The position numbers and the translations under genes were made by a program. Shown here one piece after another: positions 1 through 38,689 of a DNA stretch of 64,000 nucleotides; within the stretch, counting starts at the first letter, position 1; each line of letters begins with the position of its first letter. The notes under the pieces are model-generated. The model saw only the letters and a list, made by a program, of their open reading frames with translations, searched no databases and was not told where the DNA came from. Source of the DNA: a virus; the IMG/VR virus record IMGVR_UViG_3300019487_000030; one strand, 5' to 3'.

Positions 1-2
1 TT

Positions 3-203
3 CTACCGATTCACGTTGGTCGCGTTGTTGACGGCCGCCTGGAGATCACGCGCCGCTACGGTCACGCGCTTGCCGTTGACGTGCAGTACGACGAGCGAAT
101 CACGGTTCCAGTGCGACGCCACTGTCATTGTCGGCATCGGGATGCCACCGGTCGCTTGACCGTCAACCTCGTAGATCGTCACCTCGTTGGACACCTTGAT
201 CAC
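3..203 (-). CDS. hypothetical protein (66 aa)
   Basis: GTG start overlaps the thyX stop (GTGA); TAG at 3-5. Confidence 0.7.
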   Translation of the reverse strand: MIKVSNEVTIYEVDGQATGGIPMPTMTVASHWNRDSLVVLHVNGKRVTVAARDLQAAVNNATNVNR

Positions 204-1594
204 GCTTTCTTCTCCGTGATGGTCTGCTCGCCGCGACGCACGCTCCAGTCGTCCGGGTCCATGTCTGCGTGCAGTGCGACCTCGGGGTACTCGTGCTTGA
301 ACTTCTTGACCATCGCGTGGATGACACGGCGTAGGCTCGGGTGCACCGTTTTGCCCGAGCGCAGCTCCAGAACGTAGAGCAGCGCCGGCAGCGCATACGT
401 GACTGTGCACGGCACGCGGAAGCCGAGTGCGTTGTAGTACTGGCGCTTCACTTCGCGATCGGACTCACCGAAGCCGAGCTTGGAGATCTCGAAGCGCTGT
501 TCGTCGATCAGCGTGTCCGCTTCCTTGCCCAGCTCGCCGAGCTGTTCGAGGTACCACGGCTCGAACCCCCAGCTCGTATCGAGCAGCGGCATGCGGCACA
601 CACCGTTGCGATGGCGCTGGATGTCGCGGAACGAGCCGAAGTCGAGCAGGAAGTCGAACGTGAACGACGCGAGGTCGCTCATGAAGTGCGGCAGCACGCA
701 GCCGCGCGGGCGCGTCTTGAGAATCTCACGGTAGCGTGTGCCCTCTTCGGTGAGCATCGACGGCGGGTAGCCGGGACGGCCCCACGACGGCGTCATGCGA
801 CAGATCGCGTCGGGACCGGTGAGTGCGTGATGGTAGCGGCGGTCGACCGAGTACGTGAAGTCCTTCGCGACCAGGTACTCCCACTCCTCGCGGGCCTTGC
901 GCGCGGTCTCGTCCTTGTTGTCGACGCCGCTGACCGTCGCGAGCGAACGCGCGAAACCGCTCGACGGGTAGCGCTCGGCGAGCAGCACGCGGAGCTTGTC
1001 GACGATCTGCGTGATCTCGGCGACCGGATGCTGTTCGAGACCGGTCAGGTGATCACCACCCTGGCGTAGGTTCGTGTGCCACGAGAGCTGCGTCGTAATG
1101 CCCGCCGGCAGGAAGCCGCGCAGGATGTCGAACGTGCGCGCCTTGATCGCACCGTCGTACGCCGTCTGCTTCTCGGTCTCGCGCTTGGGGTACCTCGCGC
1201 GCAGGATCTCACCGACGGCATCTTGCTTGTTGATGTAGAACGCCATCCAGCGGTCGAGCACGGCCTTCGACTCGTGCGTGTCGAACGGATCGATGATGGG
1301 TTGCTTGCCCATGTCGATGTAGCGCGTGCTCGTCTCTTGCCCGCTGTAGAGCGGCCAGTCCTGGATCGCTTTCGCGGCAAGCAAGCTCACGCCCTCGATG
1401 AACATCGTGGTCGAGCCGCAGTCGGCGATGCTCTTGTGCGAGTACCCAACGTAGAACTTCTCCATGAATTTGCTCGATCCAGTCGCTTTGACCTTTTCGA
1501 GATGAACGTCCACAGATTCAGGGCTGCGCGAATACAGAGCCTGAAGCATCGCCACATCCTCGGGGCCTAGATCGTCGATGACACGAAGTTTCAC
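200..1594 (-). CDS. thyX: FAD-dependent thymidylate synthase ThyX (tandem-domain type)
   Basis: GYSHKSIAD, QETSTRY and RDIQRHR motifs; GTG start at 1594 with GGAG upstream, overlapping the HNH stop. Confidence 0.88.
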   Translation of the reverse strand: MKLRVIDDLGPEDVAMLQALYSRSPESVDVHLEKVKATGSSKFMEKFYVGYSHKSIADCGSTTMFIEGVSLLAAKAIQDWPLYSGQETSTRYIDMGKQPIIDPFDTHESKAVLDRWMAFYINKQDAVGEILRARYPKRETEKQTAYDGAIKARTFDILRGFLPAGITTQLSWHTNLRQGGDHLTGLEQHPVAEITQIVDKLRVLLAERYPSSGFARSLATVSGVDNKDETARKAREEWEYLVAKDFTYSVDRRYHHALTGPDAICRMTPSWGRPGYPPSMLTEEGTRYREILKTRPRGCVLPHFMSDLASFTFDFLLDFGSFRDIQRHRNGVCRMPLLDTSWGFEPWYLEQLGELGKEADTLIDEQRFEISKLGFGESDREVKRQYYNALGFRVPCTVTYALPALLYVLELRSGKTVHPSLRRVIHAMVKKFKHEYPEVALHADMDPDDWSVRRGEQTITEKKA

Positions 1595-2283
1595 GTCGGG
1601 TTCTCCACGCACCGCCATGTGGTGCCATTGCTAATGAATCGGATCGTTGACTCGGAAACTGTGAAACGACGCGCAAGCTCGGCTTTTGAGACACCGTCGG
1701 CTAACGCGACGCGAATTTGCTGGACGGCGCCCTCGGTCAACTTCGCACGACCGTTGAGCGTCCCACGACGCGGTGACTTGTAGACACCGTTCGCGGCACC
1801 ACGTGCAGCGCGCTCGGGGTGCTTACGCAAGCCGTGTGCATCGCCACGTGCAAGACGTTCCGGGCGCTGCCGTGCCCAGTGGTCATCGCCGCGTGGACGT
1901 GCTTCTGGACACGTGCGTGAGCCACTACGATCTCCTGTCGGGCCGCGATCCTTCAGGTACATGTCCATGACGTTGTCAGCCATCGACCCTAGAAGGAGAT
2001 GGTCAGGGTTGCAGCATGGTGGGTTGTCGCAACGGTGAAGGACGCAGCCACCGTGATAGCCGCCGAGGTCGGTGACGATGTTGGCGTGTTCCATCATCCA
2101 CGCGATGCGGTGCGCATAGAGCTGCACGCCGTCGACCTTGAACAGGCCGTAACCATCCTTGTGTCGTGCGGCCGTCCACGACCAACAGACGTCGGCTGGA
2201 CCGATCGTGACCTTGTCCCAGAACCGGCGTTGCACACCGGGATCGAAGAGGCGCCGCAATAGGATTTCTTCTTCGAGAGTCAC
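1591..2283 (-). CDS. HNH homing endonuclease
   Basis: CWSWT...YAHRIAW...VLHRCDNPPCCNPDHL...DN; C-terminal KLT-HTH. Confidence 0.9.
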   Translation of the reverse strand: MTLEEEILLRRLFDPGVQRRFWDKVTIGPADVCWSWTAARHKDGYGLFKVDGVQLYAHRIAWMMEHANIVTDLGGYHGGCVLHRCDNPPCCNPDHLLLGSMADNVMDMYLKDRGPTGDRSGSRTCPEARPRGDDHWARQRPERLARGDAHGLRKHPERAARGAANGVYKSPRRGTLNGRAKLTEGAVQQIRVALADGVSKAELARRFTVSESTIRFISNGTTWRCVENPT

Positions 2284-2295
2284 TTGAGTCCGGTC

Positions 2296-2745
2296 CTAGT
2301 TGGGGCGCGCTTTGAGCGCGTTGCGAGTTGACGTGTACGTTTGGAGGTAATGTTTGACGCGTCGGTGATCACGCCGATATGGGTAGATCGCGAGCAATCC
2401 ATCGATTCGCGCCCTTCGACGTGCACCCATGCGCGACTTGATCACTCGCATGAGCTGCCGTGCGTGATCATTGAAGATGTACCAACGGTACTGCACGCTG
2501 TGAACGTCCCGTGCTGGACGCGTGTAACGAACAGATCCAGTCCCGACGATCGCCTGAACGCGCAGTACTACATCGAGGTCCGTCATATTAACACTCACGC
2601 GAACGTTGAGCCCGTTCCGCACCTTGTTGTGTGTGAAACAACCTTCTCCTTCAAGCAGTCCGACCAGCCAATTCAAATCAGCCGCTTTGATGCGTCGAAC
2701 GTGGTTGCCGGGCGACAGTGACACAAGTGTGGTTGATATCGTCAC
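2296..2745 (-). CDS. LAGLIDADG homing endonuclease (single motif)
   Basis: WLVGLLEGEGCF and MTDLDV motifs. Confidence 0.85.
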   Translation of the reverse strand: MTISTTLVSLSPGNHVRRIKAADLNWLVGLLEGEGCFTHNKVRNGLNVRVSVNMTDLDVVLRVQAIVGTGSVRYTRPARDVHSVQYRWYIFNDHARQLMRVIKSRMGARRRARIDGLLAIYPYRRDHRRVKHYLQTYTSTRNALKARPN

Positions 2746-2747
2746 GG

Positions 2748-2894
2748 CTACTCGACGGGCTGCATGAACTTGCCCGAGCCGGACTGTTTCACCTTCTCCA
2801 GATGCACGTCGACACTCTCGGCCGAGCGCGAGTAGAGCGCCTGCAGCATGGCGACGTCTTCGGGGGTCAGGTCATCAACGATGCGTAGCTTCAC
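2748..2894 (-). pseudogene. thyX: truncated original thyX 5' end (48 codons)
   Basis: AGGGAG RBS + GTG; MKLRIVDDLTPEDVAMLQALYSRS...KFM matches the ThyX N-terminus, then QPVE-stop. Confidence 0.85.
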
Positions 2895-2905
2895 GGTGTC
2901 TCTCC

Positions 2906-3235
2906 CTAGATGTTGCCGATCAATACGAGGATCGGCCGCTTGACTTCGTCGTACGTCACCTTCGCGGCCCACGGCTGTGCTCGGTGGTACCAGCGCCCGG
3001 TGCCGTCCCAGTCTTCGTTGCACCACGCCTTGAGGCGTTCCTTGCGGCCGATCATGTCGGCCTTGATCTTCGTGTAGTCGTCGGCGTGCTTGACGGGATC
3101 GAACACGTACCAACACACGTGCGAGAACTCGCTCGGTGGGCCTTCCCAGTTCTTGGGCACGAAGCGGTACTCCATGACGCCCTTCACGTCACTGAGCTTC
3201 GTCACCCGTCCTGTCTTCTCCGTCGCTGCTGTCAC
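2906..3235 (-). CDS. hypothetical protein
   Basis: ORF with GAGGAG RBS and genome-typical codons. Confidence 0.7.
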   Translation of the reverse strand: MTAATEKTGRVTKLSDVKGVMEYRFVPKNWEGPPSEFSHVCWYVFDPVKHADDYTKIKADMIGRKERLKAWCNEDWDGTGRWYHRAQPWAAKVTYDEVKRPILVLIGNI

Positions 3236-3320
3236 GCTCAACTCCTCGATGCCTGCGCGCTCGTCGCGCCCCTACGCAGGCTTGCTAGTAGCTTGCTAGT
3301 TACTTCTTAGATCGCATGCT

Positions 3321-3524
3321 CTACCCAAGCAGCTCGGCACCGGTCAACTTCACCGGACCGCCGTTGAGCTTGATGATCTGATCGGCGACGCGCTTCTGCT
3401 GCTTGCGGATGCCCGCAGCCGTGCCGAGGTCACCGTGCGTGCGCGCGATGTTGAACGCACGCGACAACGCCGCTGATGCTTGGTTCAGTTCTTTGGTGAG
3501 CATCGCCTTGTGCACGGGCGTCAT
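3321..3524 (-). CDS. hypothetical protein
   Basis: GAGGAG RBS, ATG at 3524. Confidence 0.7.
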   Translation of the reverse strand: MTPVHKAMLTKELNQASAALSRAFNIARTHGDLGTAAGIRKQQKRVADQIIKLNGGPVKLTGAELLG

Positions 3525-3526
3525 GA

Positions 3527-3793
3527 TCAGCTCCTCGACGGCCAAGAGCAGCCGGGTGTGGAAGGGTTCGCTGGATTGTACGGGCGCACGAACATCTGAT
3601 TCTGCGCGGGCGGTCGGTACGGATTGGACGCGAAGTCGTTCGGCTCAAAGAACACGAACAGATTGACGACGTCGTCGCTCGCACCGATAGACGTCACCAT
3701 CGCGGGCCGCAACAGATGCACGAGTTTGTGATCATCGCCCATGATCGAGAAGTGGTAGAGCACGATGCGACACGGCGTGGGGTTTGGAATCAC
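3527..3793 (-). CDS. small phage protein (PTPCRIV...RPAMVT...VNLFVF type)
   Basis: overlapping ORF resembling a common small phage beta-protein family. Confidence 0.65.
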   Translation of the reverse strand: MIPNPTPCRIVLYHFSIMGDDHKLVHLLRPAMVTSIGASDDVVNLFVFFEPNDFASNPYRPPAQNQMFVRPYNPANPSTPGCSWPSRS

Positions 3794-4326
3794 GCGAGCC
3801 TTCTCCAGCCGTGGTAGTTCGACGAGTTGCCATACAGAGTCTGGTCAAGCCCCGGCCGTTTCAATCCGCGCTGCCGCGTCCACTCAGCGAGATTGATCGT
3901 GGTCTCGATCCGTCCCGACTTGACGTGCTGCAACTTGAAAACGTAGTTGCGCACCGACTCGAACCCTCTGAGCAGTGCACGGATCTTCGTCGCGCGCCGT
4001 TGTCCCATCTCGGGTTCGATCTGCTTCATGAGATCGTAGGCCGACGCTCCGATGATCGCGACTGTATACATCGGTTTGTTGTTTCGGTTCGCGTACGGTC
4101 CACGAACCGTACCGGCGCCGACGATTCGGCAAAGGCGTTGCAGCACGTCACGGTCAGTCATCGAACACGTGATACGGATGTTCCGCAGTGACGCTTTCTT
4201 AGAACGATTCGTTCGATCGAAACTGCCTTCGCCTTCAAGCAACCCTGCGACCCAGCCCAACTCACGTTCTGTGAGTCGTCGGACGGTGCTTGGTGTCAGC
4301 TTGCTGCCATTGCGGATCACGGTCAT
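3790..4326 (-). CDS. LAGLIDADG homing endonuclease with C-terminal extension
   Basis: WVAGLLEGEGSF and MTDRDV; clearly similar to 2296-2745. Confidence 0.85.
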   Translation of the reverse strand: MTVIRNGSKLTPSTVRRLTERELGWVAGLLEGEGSFDRTNRSKKASLRNIRITCSMTDRDVLQRLCRIVGAGTVRGPYANRNNKPMYTVAIIGASAYDLMKQIEPEMGQRRATKIRALLRGFESVRNYVFKLQHVKSGRIETTINLAEWTRQRGLKRPGLDQTLYGNSSNYHGWRRLA

Positions 4327-4610
4327 GGTTGCGTCTCCAGCCACTCGACGATGATCATCCCGTGACAGGGCATGGGGGCACACCAGCAGCCCAACCTGAG
4401 ACCTTTGAGCGCCAGGACGCGACGACGAAACTCAGGGTCCATCTCGATGCGGCGCAGGAAATATTCCTTGTACTTCTGCAGCACGACTTGCCGATCTCCA
4501 TCTTTGCCGAGATGGAACGGGTTGCCGAACGACGACGAGCGATCGATCGCAACGTCGTAGTTGCTGGTCGTCCGCATGTTGACGACGACCGTGTCGACGA
4601 TGGTCGCCAC
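4323..4610 (-). CDS. DUF4326-like protein
   Basis: RSSSFGNPF...LKGLRLGCWCAPMPCHG signature. Confidence 0.85.
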   Translation of the reverse strand: MATIVDTVVVNMRTTSNYDVAIDRSSSFGNPFHLGKDGDRQVVLQKYKEYFLRRIEMDPEFRRRVLALKGLRLGCWCAPMPCHGMIIVEWLETQP

Positions 4611-4613
4611 GGA

Positions 4614-4898
4614 CTACGCCGCCGTCGGACGGTTCTTGATCGATTCGTGGTACGCGGCGACGAGCTGCTTGGCGTGCTGCACCTGGTGTGGTCCGGGACC
4701 GACGACGCCGACGTAGTTGTCAGCCTGCGTTGCGTCGCAGACGTCGCCGCCGAGCGCGCACATCGGATGCACTTCAGCAGACTGGTGCGGCGCTTCATGC
4801 AGCAACCAACACGCGATGGGCTCGACGGAAAAACCGTCACCGTCGATCTGATGGAACACTGCTACCCAGCCTGGCTGACACGCGATCAAATTGCTCAT
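4614..4898 (-). CDS. hypothetical protein
   Basis: ORF in operon context. Confidence 0.65.
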   Translation of the reverse strand: MSNLIACQPGWVAVFHQIDGDGFSVEPIACWLLHEAPHQSAEVHPMCALGGDVCDATQADNYVGVVGPGPHQVQHAKQLVAAYHESIKNRPTAA

Positions 4899-4931
4899 GG
4901 AACCGCTACCCCTAGGTGAAACGTCTGGTCA

Positions 4932-6635
4932 CTATGTGCGCCGGAACGTGTACAGCATGACGTCGCCCGCTCCGGTTTGTCGGGTGACGTCGAAGTGCCG
5001 ACCGAGAGCGCCACCTGCTTCACGGAACCGCGCGGCGAGTCCCTTCGGTGATTTGAAGAACGTCTGGTTGCCGGTCACCTTCGCAATCATCGCTAGCTCA
5101 CGATGAAGGTCGGCGATCCGCATCTCACGACCTTGGTTCGATGTAACGTCGAGCCACTTGTCGAGCAGCTCGATCAACTGGTCGCCTTCGCCGATCACGA
5201 GCGCGTCACGCTCGGCCTGCATGGCTGCCAGCATCTCGTCGATGGCTTCGGGGCTCCAGTCGCCCGGAGGTCCCGCCGGCTGATTCAGTACGCGACCGAT
5301 CACGTGCGCGACGCGTGCGAAGTCGGCCATACGATACGGCGACGTCATCATCGGCTGCGGACGGCGCAGCTCGCGCACGATCTCGTTGAGCCAGTACAGC
5401 CACTCGCCTTGAAGCTGTGGTCGCCAGCTCTGTGCGCGTTCGAGGAGCTGATCGGCCGAGCCGAAGTTGTCGGCGCGCCGGTCGAGCTTGATGATCAGGC
5501 ACCGATCAGCGAGCTGGCCTTGGCGGAACGTCGTCGGGTTGTTGCTCGTGATCTGCAGGAAGCTCTGCGGCCGGATCACGTGCTCGGTGTCGTCGGTAAA
5601 CAGCTTGCGCTTGGACCACGTGCCGCCGGTCGCGTACGAGCACAGCGTGTCCTGCAGCCACTCGATGTGCGTGTTGACGTCGTCGATGATCGCGAGCGGC
5701 GAGCGCAGGATCTTCACGCCGAAGTCGGGATCCTCCTTCTTCGAGATCGTGAGCGGCAGGCTCTTGCCGTGCAGGATCATCGCGATGCGCTGTAGCGCGA
5801 ACGTCTTGCCCGAGCCGGGATCACCCTCGACCAGCAAGAGCGGCTTGGTCGGCATGAGATCCGGGAACGCCACCGCGAACAGCCAGATCCCAAGGCACGT
5901 CTTCTGCGTCGCAGGTGACATGCTGCCCGCTGTCGTCGGCACGTAGTTGAGATCGTCGATGAGCTGCTTCATCAGCTCGTGGTGGTTGCCGACAATCGGT
6001 CCGTCATCTGGTGGCGCGTCGCAGTTGAAGCCGCCATCGTCGTCGAGGAACACCGCCGAGCCGTAGCCGTTGTTGCGGATCTTCACCTCGTCGCCGTCGA
6101 CCTCATAGCAGGTACCGTCGTAGCGCGAGATGTAGAGCGTCTGGCGGTTCCGATCCCAGTACGAGAACCGGCGCACGTCGCGCAGGTTGCCGGTCGCGAT
6201 CGTTGCGTTTTGCAGCGCCGACATCACGTGGCGTGTGAGCTGCTCGCTGGAGTTGAGTCCGTACGCGAGCTGCATGTAGCCGCGGAACTCGGCGTCCTTC
6301 TCGTCGATGCGGTACAGCTTGCACGCCCGGCCGTCGAACAGGTACGCGCGCTTGTCGGTCGTCTTCAAGAACGCACCGTGCGGCGTCTTCCGGTTCTCGT
6401 GCGTCGTGATGAAGTTGAACAGGATCCTGCGCTTCTGATCCTCGTTGTACTTCTTGTGGTAGCGGATCGCCCAGACCTGTTGGCGCGTCCACGTATGCGG
6501 ATCGCTGCTGGGACTTCCACCACCGCCGCCACTGCCACCGCTCGACGTCGATCCGGACGAGCTAGTGCTCGCGCTTGCTGCCGCGTTCGCGCTCGTCCCG
6601 GGGAACGGGATGATGTTGTTGTTGCCGCCGGCCAT
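4932..6635 (-). CDS. P-loop NTPase, probable replicative helicase (primase-helicase C-terminal-like)
   Basis: Walker A GDPGSGKT, Walker B AIIDD, DRC arginine-finger-like motif; Ser/Gly-rich N-terminal linker; wHTH-like C-terminus. Confidence 0.7.
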   Translation of the reverse strand: MAGGNNNIIPFPGTSANAAASASTSSSGSTSSGGSGGGGGSPSSDPHTWTRQQVWAIRYHKKYNEDQKRRILFNFITTHENRKTPHGAFLKTTDKRAYLFDGRACKLYRIDEKDAEFRGYMQLAYGLNSSEQLTRHVMSALQNATIATGNLRDVRRFSYWDRNRQTLYISRYDGTCYEVDGDEVKIRNNGYGSAVFLDDDGGFNCDAPPDDGPIVGNHHELMKQLIDDLNYVPTTAGSMSPATQKTCLGIWLFAVAFPDLMPTKPLLLVEGDPGSGKTFALQRIAMILHGKSLPLTISKKEDPDFGVKILRSPLAIIDDVNTHIEWLQDTLCSYATGGTWSKRKLFTDDTEHVIRPQSFLQITSNNPTTFRQGQLADRCLIIKLDRRADNFGSADQLLERAQSWRPQLQGEWLYWLNEIVRELRRPQPMMTSPYRMADFARVAHVIGRVLNQPAGPPGDWSPEAIDEMLAAMQAERDALVIGEGDQLIELLDKWLDVTSNQGREMRIADLHRELAMIAKVTGNQTFFKSPKGLAARFREAGGALGRHFDVTRQTGAGDVMLYTFRRT

Positions 6636-37373: not shown

Positions 37374-38102
37374 ATGCTCGCAGCCGCCTACCTCGGTGAC
37401 GTCGAACCGTCTCGTGGACGCTTCGGCCGAACATGGACGGACGCACAGTTACGTACCGCCATTGCAGCGTCCCGAAACTTCGCTGAAGTCTGCGCGAAAC
37501 TGGGGCTGACCTCACAGCGCAATCGAGTCGTCGTGGAACGCACCCGGACGCTCGGGCTCGACACGATGCACTTCACGAGTCAGACGACGCGTGGCGAGAA
37601 GCGACAAAACGCAGTCACGCTCGATGACATCCTGACCAACAAACGACCGTTCGAGTCGTCGTACGTCAAGAAGCGGCTCTTGAAGGCCGGACTGCTCACG
37701 TACCACTGCTACGAGTGCAAGCTCGTCGAGTGGCGCGGCAAGCCACTGACACTGGAACTGGATCACATCGACGGCAACAACCAGAACAACGCGCTGAACA
37801 ACCTGCGCTTGCTTTGTCCGAACTGTCACGCACAGACGCCGACGTTTCGCGGACGGAACATCACGCAGCGGATGACAAAGACGTTGGTATACCGTTGCGA
37901 AAAGTGTGAGAAGCAGATCTCGTGCGGTGCCCGATTCTGCCGTTCGTGCGCTCCCAAGCGTAGCAAACCGCGCGAATGGCCGCCCGACACAGAGTTGCAG
38001 ATGCTCGTCGAAACGCTCGGACCTCTTGCGACGTCGCGTCGTCTCGGCGTAAGTCGCCACGTACTGCACGAACACCTCCAGCAGATGGGATCCCCAGCAT
38101 GA
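37374..38102 (+). CDS. HNH homing endonuclease
   Basis: CYEC...LELDHIDGNNQNNALNNLRLLCPNCHAQT; C-terminal Zn finger/HTH. Confidence 0.9.
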   Translation: MLAAAYLGDVEPSRGRFGRTWTDAQLRTAIAASRNFAEVCAKLGLTSQRNRVVVERTRTLGLDTMHFTSQTTRGEKRQNAVTLDDILTNKRPFESSYVKKRLLKAGLLTYHCYECKLVEWRGKPLTLELDHIDGNNQNNALNNLRLLCPNCHAQTPTFRGRNITQRMTKTLVYRCEKCEKQISCGARFCRSCAPKRSKPREWPPDTELQMLVETLGPLATSRRLGVSRHVLHEHLQQMGSPA

Positions 38103-38689
38103 TGTCTATGCAGCAGCTCGGCGATGTCGAGCCATACCAACAGGTCGAGCGCTATTCGTGTGGAGCGGCCACGCTCAAGGCCGTGCTCGGCCACTGGGGC
38201 GAGCGTCTTCCCGAACGAAAGCTGATCAAGGAGATCGGCATCGATCCCGAGAACGGCTCGACGGCGCTCCAGGTCGCCGACGCCGCTCGCCGACGCGGCT
38301 ACAACGCGCAGGTCAAGCTGTTCGGCTCGATTGCCGAGCTTGGACGCGTAACGGCGCAGAACACGCCGGTCATCCTTGCGATCCAGAGCTTCACGCGCCC
38401 GAACCAGGGCCACTTCGTCGTCGCGACTGAGGTCAAGCCGACCGTCGTCGGGATCATGGACCCGAACGTCAAAGGCAACCGCCGCACGCTCACGCACCGC
38501 GAGCTGGACAAACGCTGGAAGTTCCGTGATCGGGTCGGCGTGATCGTCACGCCCAAGACGAAGAAGACCCAGCTCGGCTCCGTGTCGTGGACGCCGCGCA
38601 CGACGGTGTTCGCCCTCGCGGGCGCGGCTCTGGCCATTGCTGGCGCGGTGACCGGCGTCGTGATCTACCGTCGCAAGCGCACGAGCTAG
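38099..38689 (+). CDS. stand-alone C39-family cysteine peptidase with C-terminal membrane anchor
   Basis: Q-x5-C (QQVERYSCGAA), GHFVV, MDPN; TM helix then RRKR. Confidence 0.85.
   Translation: MMSMQQLGDVEPYQQVERYSCGAATLKAVLGHWGERLPERKLIKEIGIDPENGSTALQVADAARRRGYNAQVKLFGSIAELGRVTAQNTPVILAIQSFTRPNQGHFVVATEVKPTVVGIMDPNVKGNRRTLTHRELDKRWKFRDRVGVIVTPKTKKTQLGSVSWTPRTTVFALAGAALAIAGAVTGVVIYRRKRTS

Follow-up and report, generated by a model that had tools for sequence, protein, structure and literature searches.

The window analysed here is a 64,000-nucleotide stretch of viral DNA taken whole (IMG/VR record IMGVR_UViG_3300019487_000030), and its gene thyX is preceded on the same strand by two homing-endonuclease genes and by a second, truncated copy of its own beginning. 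Read as open reading frames (ORFs), the minus strand presents a gene of 111 amino acids (aa), a thyX stub, a LAGLIDADG ORF, an HNH ORF and then the complete thyX, in this order. The features of the locus are as follows (positions in the window; nt, nucleotides; GC3, GC content at third codon positions).

2906..3241, minus strand: conserved upstream gene, 111 aa; left flank shared with unoccupied relatives, GC3 0.86
2748..2894, minus strand: thyX stub; codons 1-44 (2894-2763), then QPVE and TAG (2750-2748)
2296..2745, minus strand: LAGLIDADG gene, 149 aa; assigned with Pfam and PHROG
1591..2283, minus strand: HNH gene, 230 aa; assigned with Pfam and PHROG
1439..1594, minus strand: imported cassette-type thyX codons 1-52; delimited by fixed differences, GC3 0.57
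200..1594, minus strand: complete chimeric thyX, 464 aa from the GTG at 1594; PF02511
1463..2762, minus strand: 1300-nt stretch missing from unoccupied alleles; stub tail, LAGLIDADG, HNH and imported codons 1-44

The two copies of thyX codons 1-44 lie exactly 1300 nt apart. They have 37 of the 44 residues in common, 24 of these 37 being written with a different codon, and agree at 93 of 132 nt (70%), with the differences distributed 9/4/26 over the three codon positions. Comparison of the stub frame with the working frame in BLASTP gives E = 1e-19, and chance similarity of two thyX starts is excluded. An all-against-all BLASTP of the window at 1e-4 returns no other duplication of this kind; two starts at 37374-38134 on the plus strand, undetected in that comparison, share just the hexapeptide LGDVEP. 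Gene order, coordinates, spacing and the counts of shared residues and codons had been described in a first-pass annotation made from the DNA letters alone, and all of them hold on re-reading of the minus strand, as does the overlap of the new thyX start with the HNH stop (GTGA, 1594-1591). The same adjacency is found in the related loci L067, L070, L072 and L073.

The ribosome-binding site (RBS) of the working thyX (GGAG, 1606-1603) lies in the last HNH codons. The longest thyX ORF, which is also the public gene call, begins at an ATG at 1618 and has 472 aa, its start being placed inside the HNH gene without an RBS; the GTG at 1594 (464 aa) is preferred as the start on account of the homologues and of the GGAG. 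The product matches PF02511 with 57 bits against a cut-off of 24.8, covering residues 6-210 of 464 only, and is a long phage form of the Thy1 family, a predicted flavin-dependent thymidylate synthase. This long form has more than 3800 homologues, mostly on phage-like contigs, and the window's thyX is full-length at 77-83% identity to many homologues of 460 aa. The RHR motif (QRHRNG) sits in the second half of the protein. A scan for promoters and terminators gave no hit on the minus strand and none that exceeded shuffles. Among GenBank phages, megablast returned no close relative of the window, and tblastn identity was 31% or less.

Origin of the two thyX 5′ ends

The stub is organized like an ordinary thyX beginning: its GTG at 2894 follows an RBS (GGGAGAG, 2906-2900), and codons 1-44 continue into four unrelated codons (QPVE) and the TAG. 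At the nucleotide level it is 91-93% identical to the uninterrupted 5′ ends of L062 and L002 and to the stub of L001, compared with 70% to the window's own working copy; all 44 of its residues are those of L002, and its GC3 is 0.84. The junction upstream of the stub matches the empty-allele junction in L062, and the 111-aa gene beyond it, for which neither Pfam nor PHROG has a family, is 78-82% identical to its counterpart upstream of thyX in L002 and L062-L065. Taken together, the stubs of the window, L001 and L067 are 83-93% identical to uninterrupted alleles. The L070 stub with its N-terminal extension belongs to another thyX lineage, being identical to P0047 over its length. From these relationships, the stub is understood as the original 5′ end of the recipient lineage, displaced from its gene.

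The affinities of the working 5′ end are different. The window tract is 77-84% identical in nucleotides to other HNH-linked 5′ ends, compared with 66-70% to resident alleles. More generally, the working 5′ ends of all carriers are 74-96% identical among themselves whatever the thyX body to which they are joined, compared with 66-72% to resident alleles, and every one of them is linked to HNH or to 25-60 nt of the HNH 3′ end. In base composition, the tract (GC3 0.57) resembles HNH (0.67) and LAGLIDADG (0.60), as opposed to the rest of thyX (0.88-0.94) and the neighbouring phage genes (0.84-0.94). The working 5′ end is thus a foreign allele, travelling together with HNH.

The extent of the foreign tract was obtained from a scan for fixed differences, defined as sites with no base in common between six HNH-linked genes and three unoccupied ones. 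All 19 such sites fall at nt 16-156 of thyX (13 in nt 1-132 and 6 in nt 133-156), with none in nt 157-330. Because the fixed differences stop at nt 156, the imported tract is considered to comprise codons 1-52, up to window position 1439, and so to reach 8 codons past the duplicated part. The replacement had been described as codons 1-44, which is correct for the duplication and too short for the import. Ten residues are changed in the tract, 7 of them within codons 1-44 and the other 3 within codons 45-52. The latter codons (1462-1439) cross the stub's breakpoint and encode E45, K46 and S52 versus resident S45, N/S46 and G52, the three changed codons directly preceding the invariant HKSIADCG block. 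Codons 45-52 of the tract could accordingly represent a mutated target site. S52 occurs in just 8 of 120 homologues, 7 of them linked to HNH or its trace (the eighth is L074).

A native source lineage for the cassette-type tract was not found, the nearest unlinked sequences being L059 (75%) and L074 (71%). DNA-pattern scans for cassette-type codons 43-56 returned the L001 contig only from IMG/VR and nothing from GTDB genomes. In L072, where HNH is simply intergenic, the GC3 of thyX is low throughout (0.57). A genome like L072 is the kind of source that such a tract could have, L072 itself being no proven donor.

The stub breakpoints are closely clustered. Relative to codon 44, the stubs end at +0 nt in the window, +4 in L001, +4 in L070 and +16 in L067, hence within a span of 16 nt in a gene of 1.4 kb, though the position of the stub end is otherwise unconstrained. 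The breakpoints fall in the best-conserved 24-nt windows of the first 240 nt of thyX, as evaluated over 62 lineages, in which nt 115-150 show an identity to consensus of 0.85-0.87. Homing enzymes tend to choose sites of this kind. L001 and L070 have the same junction and cargo, yet their stubs derive from different thyX lineages, a pattern that homing into different alleles would produce. At all four occupied loci with a stub, the stub ORF is intact, with RBS, start codon and open frame kept, and it is joined to the cargo behind it by TAG-cc-GTG, ATGA, GTGA or a 14-nt overlap. The stub may have two roles, as the left homology arm for homing and as a leader ORF for the cargo.

The HNH gene, the cargo and the alleles of relatives

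The HNH protein contains PF05551 (His-Me zinc loop; 30.8 against a cut-off of 27) and PF13392 (HNH_3; 26.5 against 24.8) together with a C-terminal helix-turn-helix (HTH), and it matches several HNH families of PHROG at 1e-17 to 1e-24. Comparison with PDB sequences gave no match, and a look-up of the protein in IMG/VR gave no locus. Orthologues of 84-90% identity lie directly upstream of cassette-type thyX in L067 (89%), L072 and L073, and the motif HRCDN...CCNPDH...ADN is conserved in the HNH of the window, L072 and L073. The ratio of nonsynonymous to synonymous substitution (dN/dS) among intact copies is ~0.05-0.11, at dS of 0.75-1.76, which indicates that the function of the enzyme was maintained during a long association, even as other copies decay. 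Retention of the HNH gene together with decaying copies corresponds to the usual homing cycle, and HNH emerges from the comparison as the partner that constantly accompanies the imported thyX 5′ end. Where HNH has been deleted, in L068 and L075, the part that remains is the 3′ piece bearing the thyX RBS. The HNH of L067 (2202-2891), otherwise intact, reads CCNPDC instead of CCNPDH, the second His of the motif being replaced by Cys, and this enzyme may be inactive or altered. In L072, positions 1-2594 encode a 901-aa protein with intein and homing-endonuclease domains (Hom_end_hint; weakly Hom_end), from which it appears that these phages host several kinds of homing element.

The LAGLIDADG ORF matches PF00961 with 24.3 bits (cut-off 23.1) and phrog_5046 at 6e-18, has a single motif and begins with a GTG 2 nt past the stop of the stub. 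No relative above 40% identity was found, and the gene is absent from all other occupied loci. These have a 207-aa ORF (L067) or a 353-aa ORF (L070/L071; 3201-4262 in L070) as cargo, and in L001 (4739-5998) a deletion fuses an ORF of the 353-aa type in frame to the last 116 HNH residues, giving a 419-aa chimera. LAGLIDADG is thus interpreted as one of several interchangeable cargoes. The first-pass annotation, which had included both nucleases in the cassette, is in agreement with the present evidence for HNH, and for LAGLIDADG the assignment is narrowed to that of variable cargo. The 353-aa cargo has PF26125 (AcrVA2-like) among precomputed Pfam hits and a weak match of its tail to phrog_15934.

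Additional genes have settled in the vicinity. A second, free-standing LAGLIDADG gene of 197 aa lies at 3790-4383 of the window (minus strand) and is 37% identical to that of the cassette. Free-standing LAGLIDADG genes occupy the same intergenic place, after a DUF4326 gene, in L002 (3607-4167) and L062 (4577-5107), both of them unoccupied at thyX; this is apparently a separate and older homing-endonuclease site. In L002, a 319-aa ORF without Pfam or PHROG family is present between the 110-aa gene and thyX (5039-5998), and the interval immediately before thyX looks like an insertion hot spot.

Relatives provide the locus in several states. Uninterrupted thyX is found in L062-L065, L002, L066 and L076. 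In L062-L065 no other gene lies between the 110-aa gene and thyX; their junction is that seen at 2906/2894 of the window, and the thyX body has 83% amino-acid identity to the window's. Stub, cargo and HNH or its remnant are present in the window, L001, L067 and L070/L071, of which L070 has HNH frameshifted, L001 lacks its catalytic half and L067 has it intact. L072 and L073 are occupied without a stub, HNH lying directly upstream of thyX. In L068/L069 and L075 HNH is lost, and 25 and 60 nt of its 3′ end, respectively, precede the thyX start. The idea of an intron-free and intein-free endonuclease cassette in thyX, equipped with a replacement 5′ end, is well reflected in these occupied, unoccupied and decayed alleles.

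The empty allele to be expected from such an idea, joining 2763 directly to 1462, is present in the source metagenome, which is from a cave. A contig of the source run X1 (depth 23.8 versus 50.3) skips the 1300 nt in this way, and a contig of another run, X4, has the same joint. The X1 contig, a co-occurring relative with an empty allele, aligns to the window in two pieces, with 62 differences in 414 positions and 10 in 103. L001, which combines the duplication with a truncated HNH, is a decayed element and does not speak against the cassette. The occupied L067 and the unoccupied L076 have nearly identical proteins and are 86% identical in DNA.

The distribution of the element is patchy. When 79 thyX bodies, each starting at the HKSIAD block, are placed on a maximum-likelihood tree, the eight carriers are scattered such that 8 changes are needed, a number also forced by the starred branches, and the eight form a single clade in no bootstrap tree. 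Each carrier has a non-carrier as its sister, for example the window with L062 (support 100/98), L001 with L066 and L067 with P0019.

Proposed mechanism and competing explanations

With the architecture, the foreign HNH-linked tract, the recipient-type stubs, the occupied, empty and decayed alleles and the patchy phylogeny established, we consider it likely that thyX is occupied at codon 45-50 by a homing element whose core consists of a free-standing HNH gene and its own foreign version of thyX codons 1-52. The steps that we infer, namely cleavage and its position, immunity of both copies, homing in this form and translational coupling, could be connected as follows. In a mixed infection, HNH would cut or nick the unoccupied thyX in its best-conserved 5′ stretch, around nt 115-156 (codons 40-52). 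Repair of the break from the occupied genome would involve pairing of the recipient 5′ end with the donor stub (~90% identical) and of the recipient thyX body with the donor beyond codon 52, and gap repair would then copy in the cargo, HNH and the resistant replacement 5′ end. The recipient's first 44-49 codons would become the new stub, and thyX function would be restored without intron or intein. Given that the stub lacks the site and that the new copy is altered at codons 45, 46 and 52 as well as at silent positions, both should escape cutting; and copies only 70% identical should recombine poorly. If donor and recipient share the upstream gene, the stub-less form seen in L072 and L073 may result from intronless homing of the ordinary kind. 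Expression of the element could rely on the signals of thyX itself, proceeding from the native RBS through stub ORF, cargo and HNH to thyX by way of the GTGA overlap and the RBS in HNH. The proposal predicts an HNH target of 25-40 base pairs in thyX, for which candidate sensitive and resistant alleles exist naturally.

Several points weigh against this reading. Enzyme activity, cut site and homing are deduced from the sequence of an uncultivated phage, and the target position is deduced from breakpoints and fixed differences only. The sample is small: apart from the window, it consists of six contigs or contig pairs that are independent of one another. Some dependence may exist among the three junction types, because nearby breakpoints could also arise by cargo swaps beside a single original junction. 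In L074 a cassette-like N-terminus occurs with no HNH trace, and its DNA is not specially close. The persistence of HNH in L072 and L073 without a stub implies that the stub is not required. Lastly, thyX is a mosaic along its whole length (51%-96% identity to relatives in 90-nt windows), so that general phage recombination adds to the discordance of the trees.

This mosaic character, with several other recombined blocks in thyX, lends itself to a different account, in which an HNH gene intergenic upstream of thyX was moved by mosaic or illegitimate recombination, the stub results incidentally from one-sided homology and has no role, and the spread reflects vertical descent plus general recombination. 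The stub-less forms of L072 and L073 correspond to the starting point so envisaged, and the best-conserved stretch that harbours the junction is also a natural crossover point. A recombination scar does not, however, readily account for three junction types within 16 nt of the gene, for a tract that always ends at nt 156, for the eight changes on the body tree or for the purifying selection on HNH; and the shared junction and cargo of L001 and L070 on stubs of different lineages fit homing into new alleles. We regard the scar as improbable, and the HNH-driven element is preferred to it.

Invasion driven in this genome by LAGLIDADG, or by LAGLIDADG acting with HNH, is less probable still and in our judgment quite unlikely. 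Its position directly against the stub junction, a motif (LLEGEG) that looks intact and the free-standing paralogue 1 kb away might point to such a function. Against it, the other occupied loci all have different cargo in its place, a close relative is found nowhere (40% identity or less), and it is HNH with which the foreign 5′ tract co-varies.

The first-pass annotation had understood the working copy as synonymously recoded. The codon differences are real, and with 24 of 37 conserved residues affected and a proportion of synonymous differences (pS) between stub and working copy of 0.83-0.87, seemingly above saturation, they might call to mind an in-place tandem duplication of the thyX start that was silently re-spelled under selection, the nucleases arriving later. 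As a control, the same codons of resident alleles were compared with those of 55 other thyX lineages. Among conserved residues, the proportion written with another codon is 0.64 between resident and cassette alleles and averages 0.66 between resident alleles and the other lineages (0.71 where these have a low GC3). Re-spelling beyond saturation was therefore rejected, the level of codon difference being equal to that of the control. Silent divergence normal for a distant allele, ten amino-acid changes in the tract and the linkage to HNH collectively indicate that the tract was imported and was not re-spelled in place. An in-place duplication is further contradicted by the match of tract GC3 to the nucleases and by the relationships of the two copies, the stub being 91-93% identical to relatives and the working copy 66-70%, but 77-84% to HNH-linked copies. 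Its likelihood is marginal. Poor recombination between the copies and an altered target would both follow from the divergence; they may be by-products or reflect selected retention and are not evidence of design.

Removal of the insert from RNA or protein, or its bypass in translation (group I/II intron, intein, gene-60-like bypass), has a negligible likelihood. The 2763-1462 joint would be in frame and would yield a normal thyX, but there is no need for removal when a second, complete 5′ end is present with an RBS of its own. In addition, a stop codon follows the stub, the nuclease ORFs have no Hint/intein Pfam domain, a search of positions 1-6000 against Rfam gave nothing up to E = 1, and the ~29 nt of insert that are neither ORF nor duplicated leave no room for a ribozyme core.

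Comparison with known homing elements

Among phage systems, the free-standing homing-endonuclease genes of T4 (seg, mob) are the nearest. In the T4-centred review of Edgell, Gibb and Belfort (2010, PMC2988022), the arrangements covered are introns, inteins, intergenic sites and gene splitting, the last with mobE in nrdA, mobA in a topoisomerase gene and seg in gene 43 as cases; gene-end duplication or replacement has no mention there. Like these genes, the HNH described here resides beside a conserved gene of nucleotide metabolism and has a patchy distribution, flanking sequence is co-imported, and expression signals of the host gene are embedded in the nuclease gene; the stub-less L072 and L073 resemble this ordinary case. 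The difference is that thyX is neither split nor spliced but rebuilt. A literature search, to which most subscription journals were beyond reach, found no published description of such an arrangement in phages.

Rebuilding of genes is known from fungal mitochondria, where mORFs make gene hybrids in atp6 of Allomyces macrogynus and in atp6, atp9, cox2 and nad3 of Glomus (Beaudet et al. 2013, PMC3630166). Partial duplications of cob and atp6 occur beside homing-endonuclease genes (PMC6279837), and a GIY-YIG gene is duplicated together with the N-terminus of atp9 (PMC7487136). The analogy to fungal mitochondrial elements drawn at the outset is apt in view of the Glomus work (PMC3630166): in both situations, a conserved gene has acquired an endonuclease ORF together with a foreign gene end, which displaces the native one. 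Even the identities are nearly equal, with 91-98% for the native end in comparison to that of a relative and 64-81% for the inserted end in Glomus (PMC3630166), versus 91-93% and 66-70% for thyX. The mORFs are mostly C-terminal, often in phase, of the LAGLIDADG or GIY-YIG type and located in organelle genomes, whereas the thyX element is N-terminal, of the HNH type, composed of separate ORFs with overlapping stops and starts, and located in a phage.

Another close parallel is provided by the WHO elements at the yeast aldolase gene FBA1, in which the 3′ end is replaced, the old end is kept as a recombination arm and cleavage data are available (Coughlan et al. 2020, PMC7282813). Osborne, Monnin and Wolfe (2026, bioRxiv 10.64898/2026.08.13.744650) call WHO a third, rarer category of homing element. 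As in WHO (PMC7282813), the endonuclease gene adjoins a full-length host gene whose adjacent end is a divergent allele (resistant in WHO), and beyond the nuclease gene a fragment preserves the displaced native end (the homology arm in WHO). The mobile unit would in both cases be a nuclease gene plus a resistant gene end, resistance being our inference for thyX. Trees of the gene parts are discordant, and both systems have occupied alleles alongside unoccupied ones as well as decaying elements. The differences are likewise clear. The thyX element replaces the 5′ end and WHO the 3′ end; HNH with HTH is used here, compared to an intein-derived LAGLIDADG with zinc finger, related to HO, in WHO; and the host is a phage as opposed to a diploid yeast. 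Cargo is present between stub and nuclease in the thyX element, and its stub keeps the start and is apparently a leader ORF. Cleavage was demonstrated for WHO, and the thyX element is known from its sequence alone. By analogy, the thyX element would work like WHO and mORF elements, to which it is not homologous.

The wider proposition is that phages carry a distinct class of intron- and intein-free homing element, defined by a resistant 5′ end, a stub serving as arm and leader, and arbitrary cargo, with the thyX element as an actively homing, long-lived member (HNH dS up to ~1.7) and a mirror image of WHO; to this we would assign even chances. If true, a homing endonuclease can colonise conserved phage coding sequence without splicing machinery. 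Unrelated cargo would have a route between phages, LAGLIDADG in the window and the AcrVA2-like-tagged 353-aa protein elsewhere, and there would be an explanation for a class of chimeric gene starts and short "orphan" ORFs met in the annotation of phages and metagenomes. The category of gene-end replacement, so far represented in yeast nuclei and fungal mitochondria, would come to include phages, HNH enzymes and the 5′ ends of genes, and the elements that their discoverers call a third and rare category of homing element, WHO, would have their mirror image in a virus of prokaryotes.

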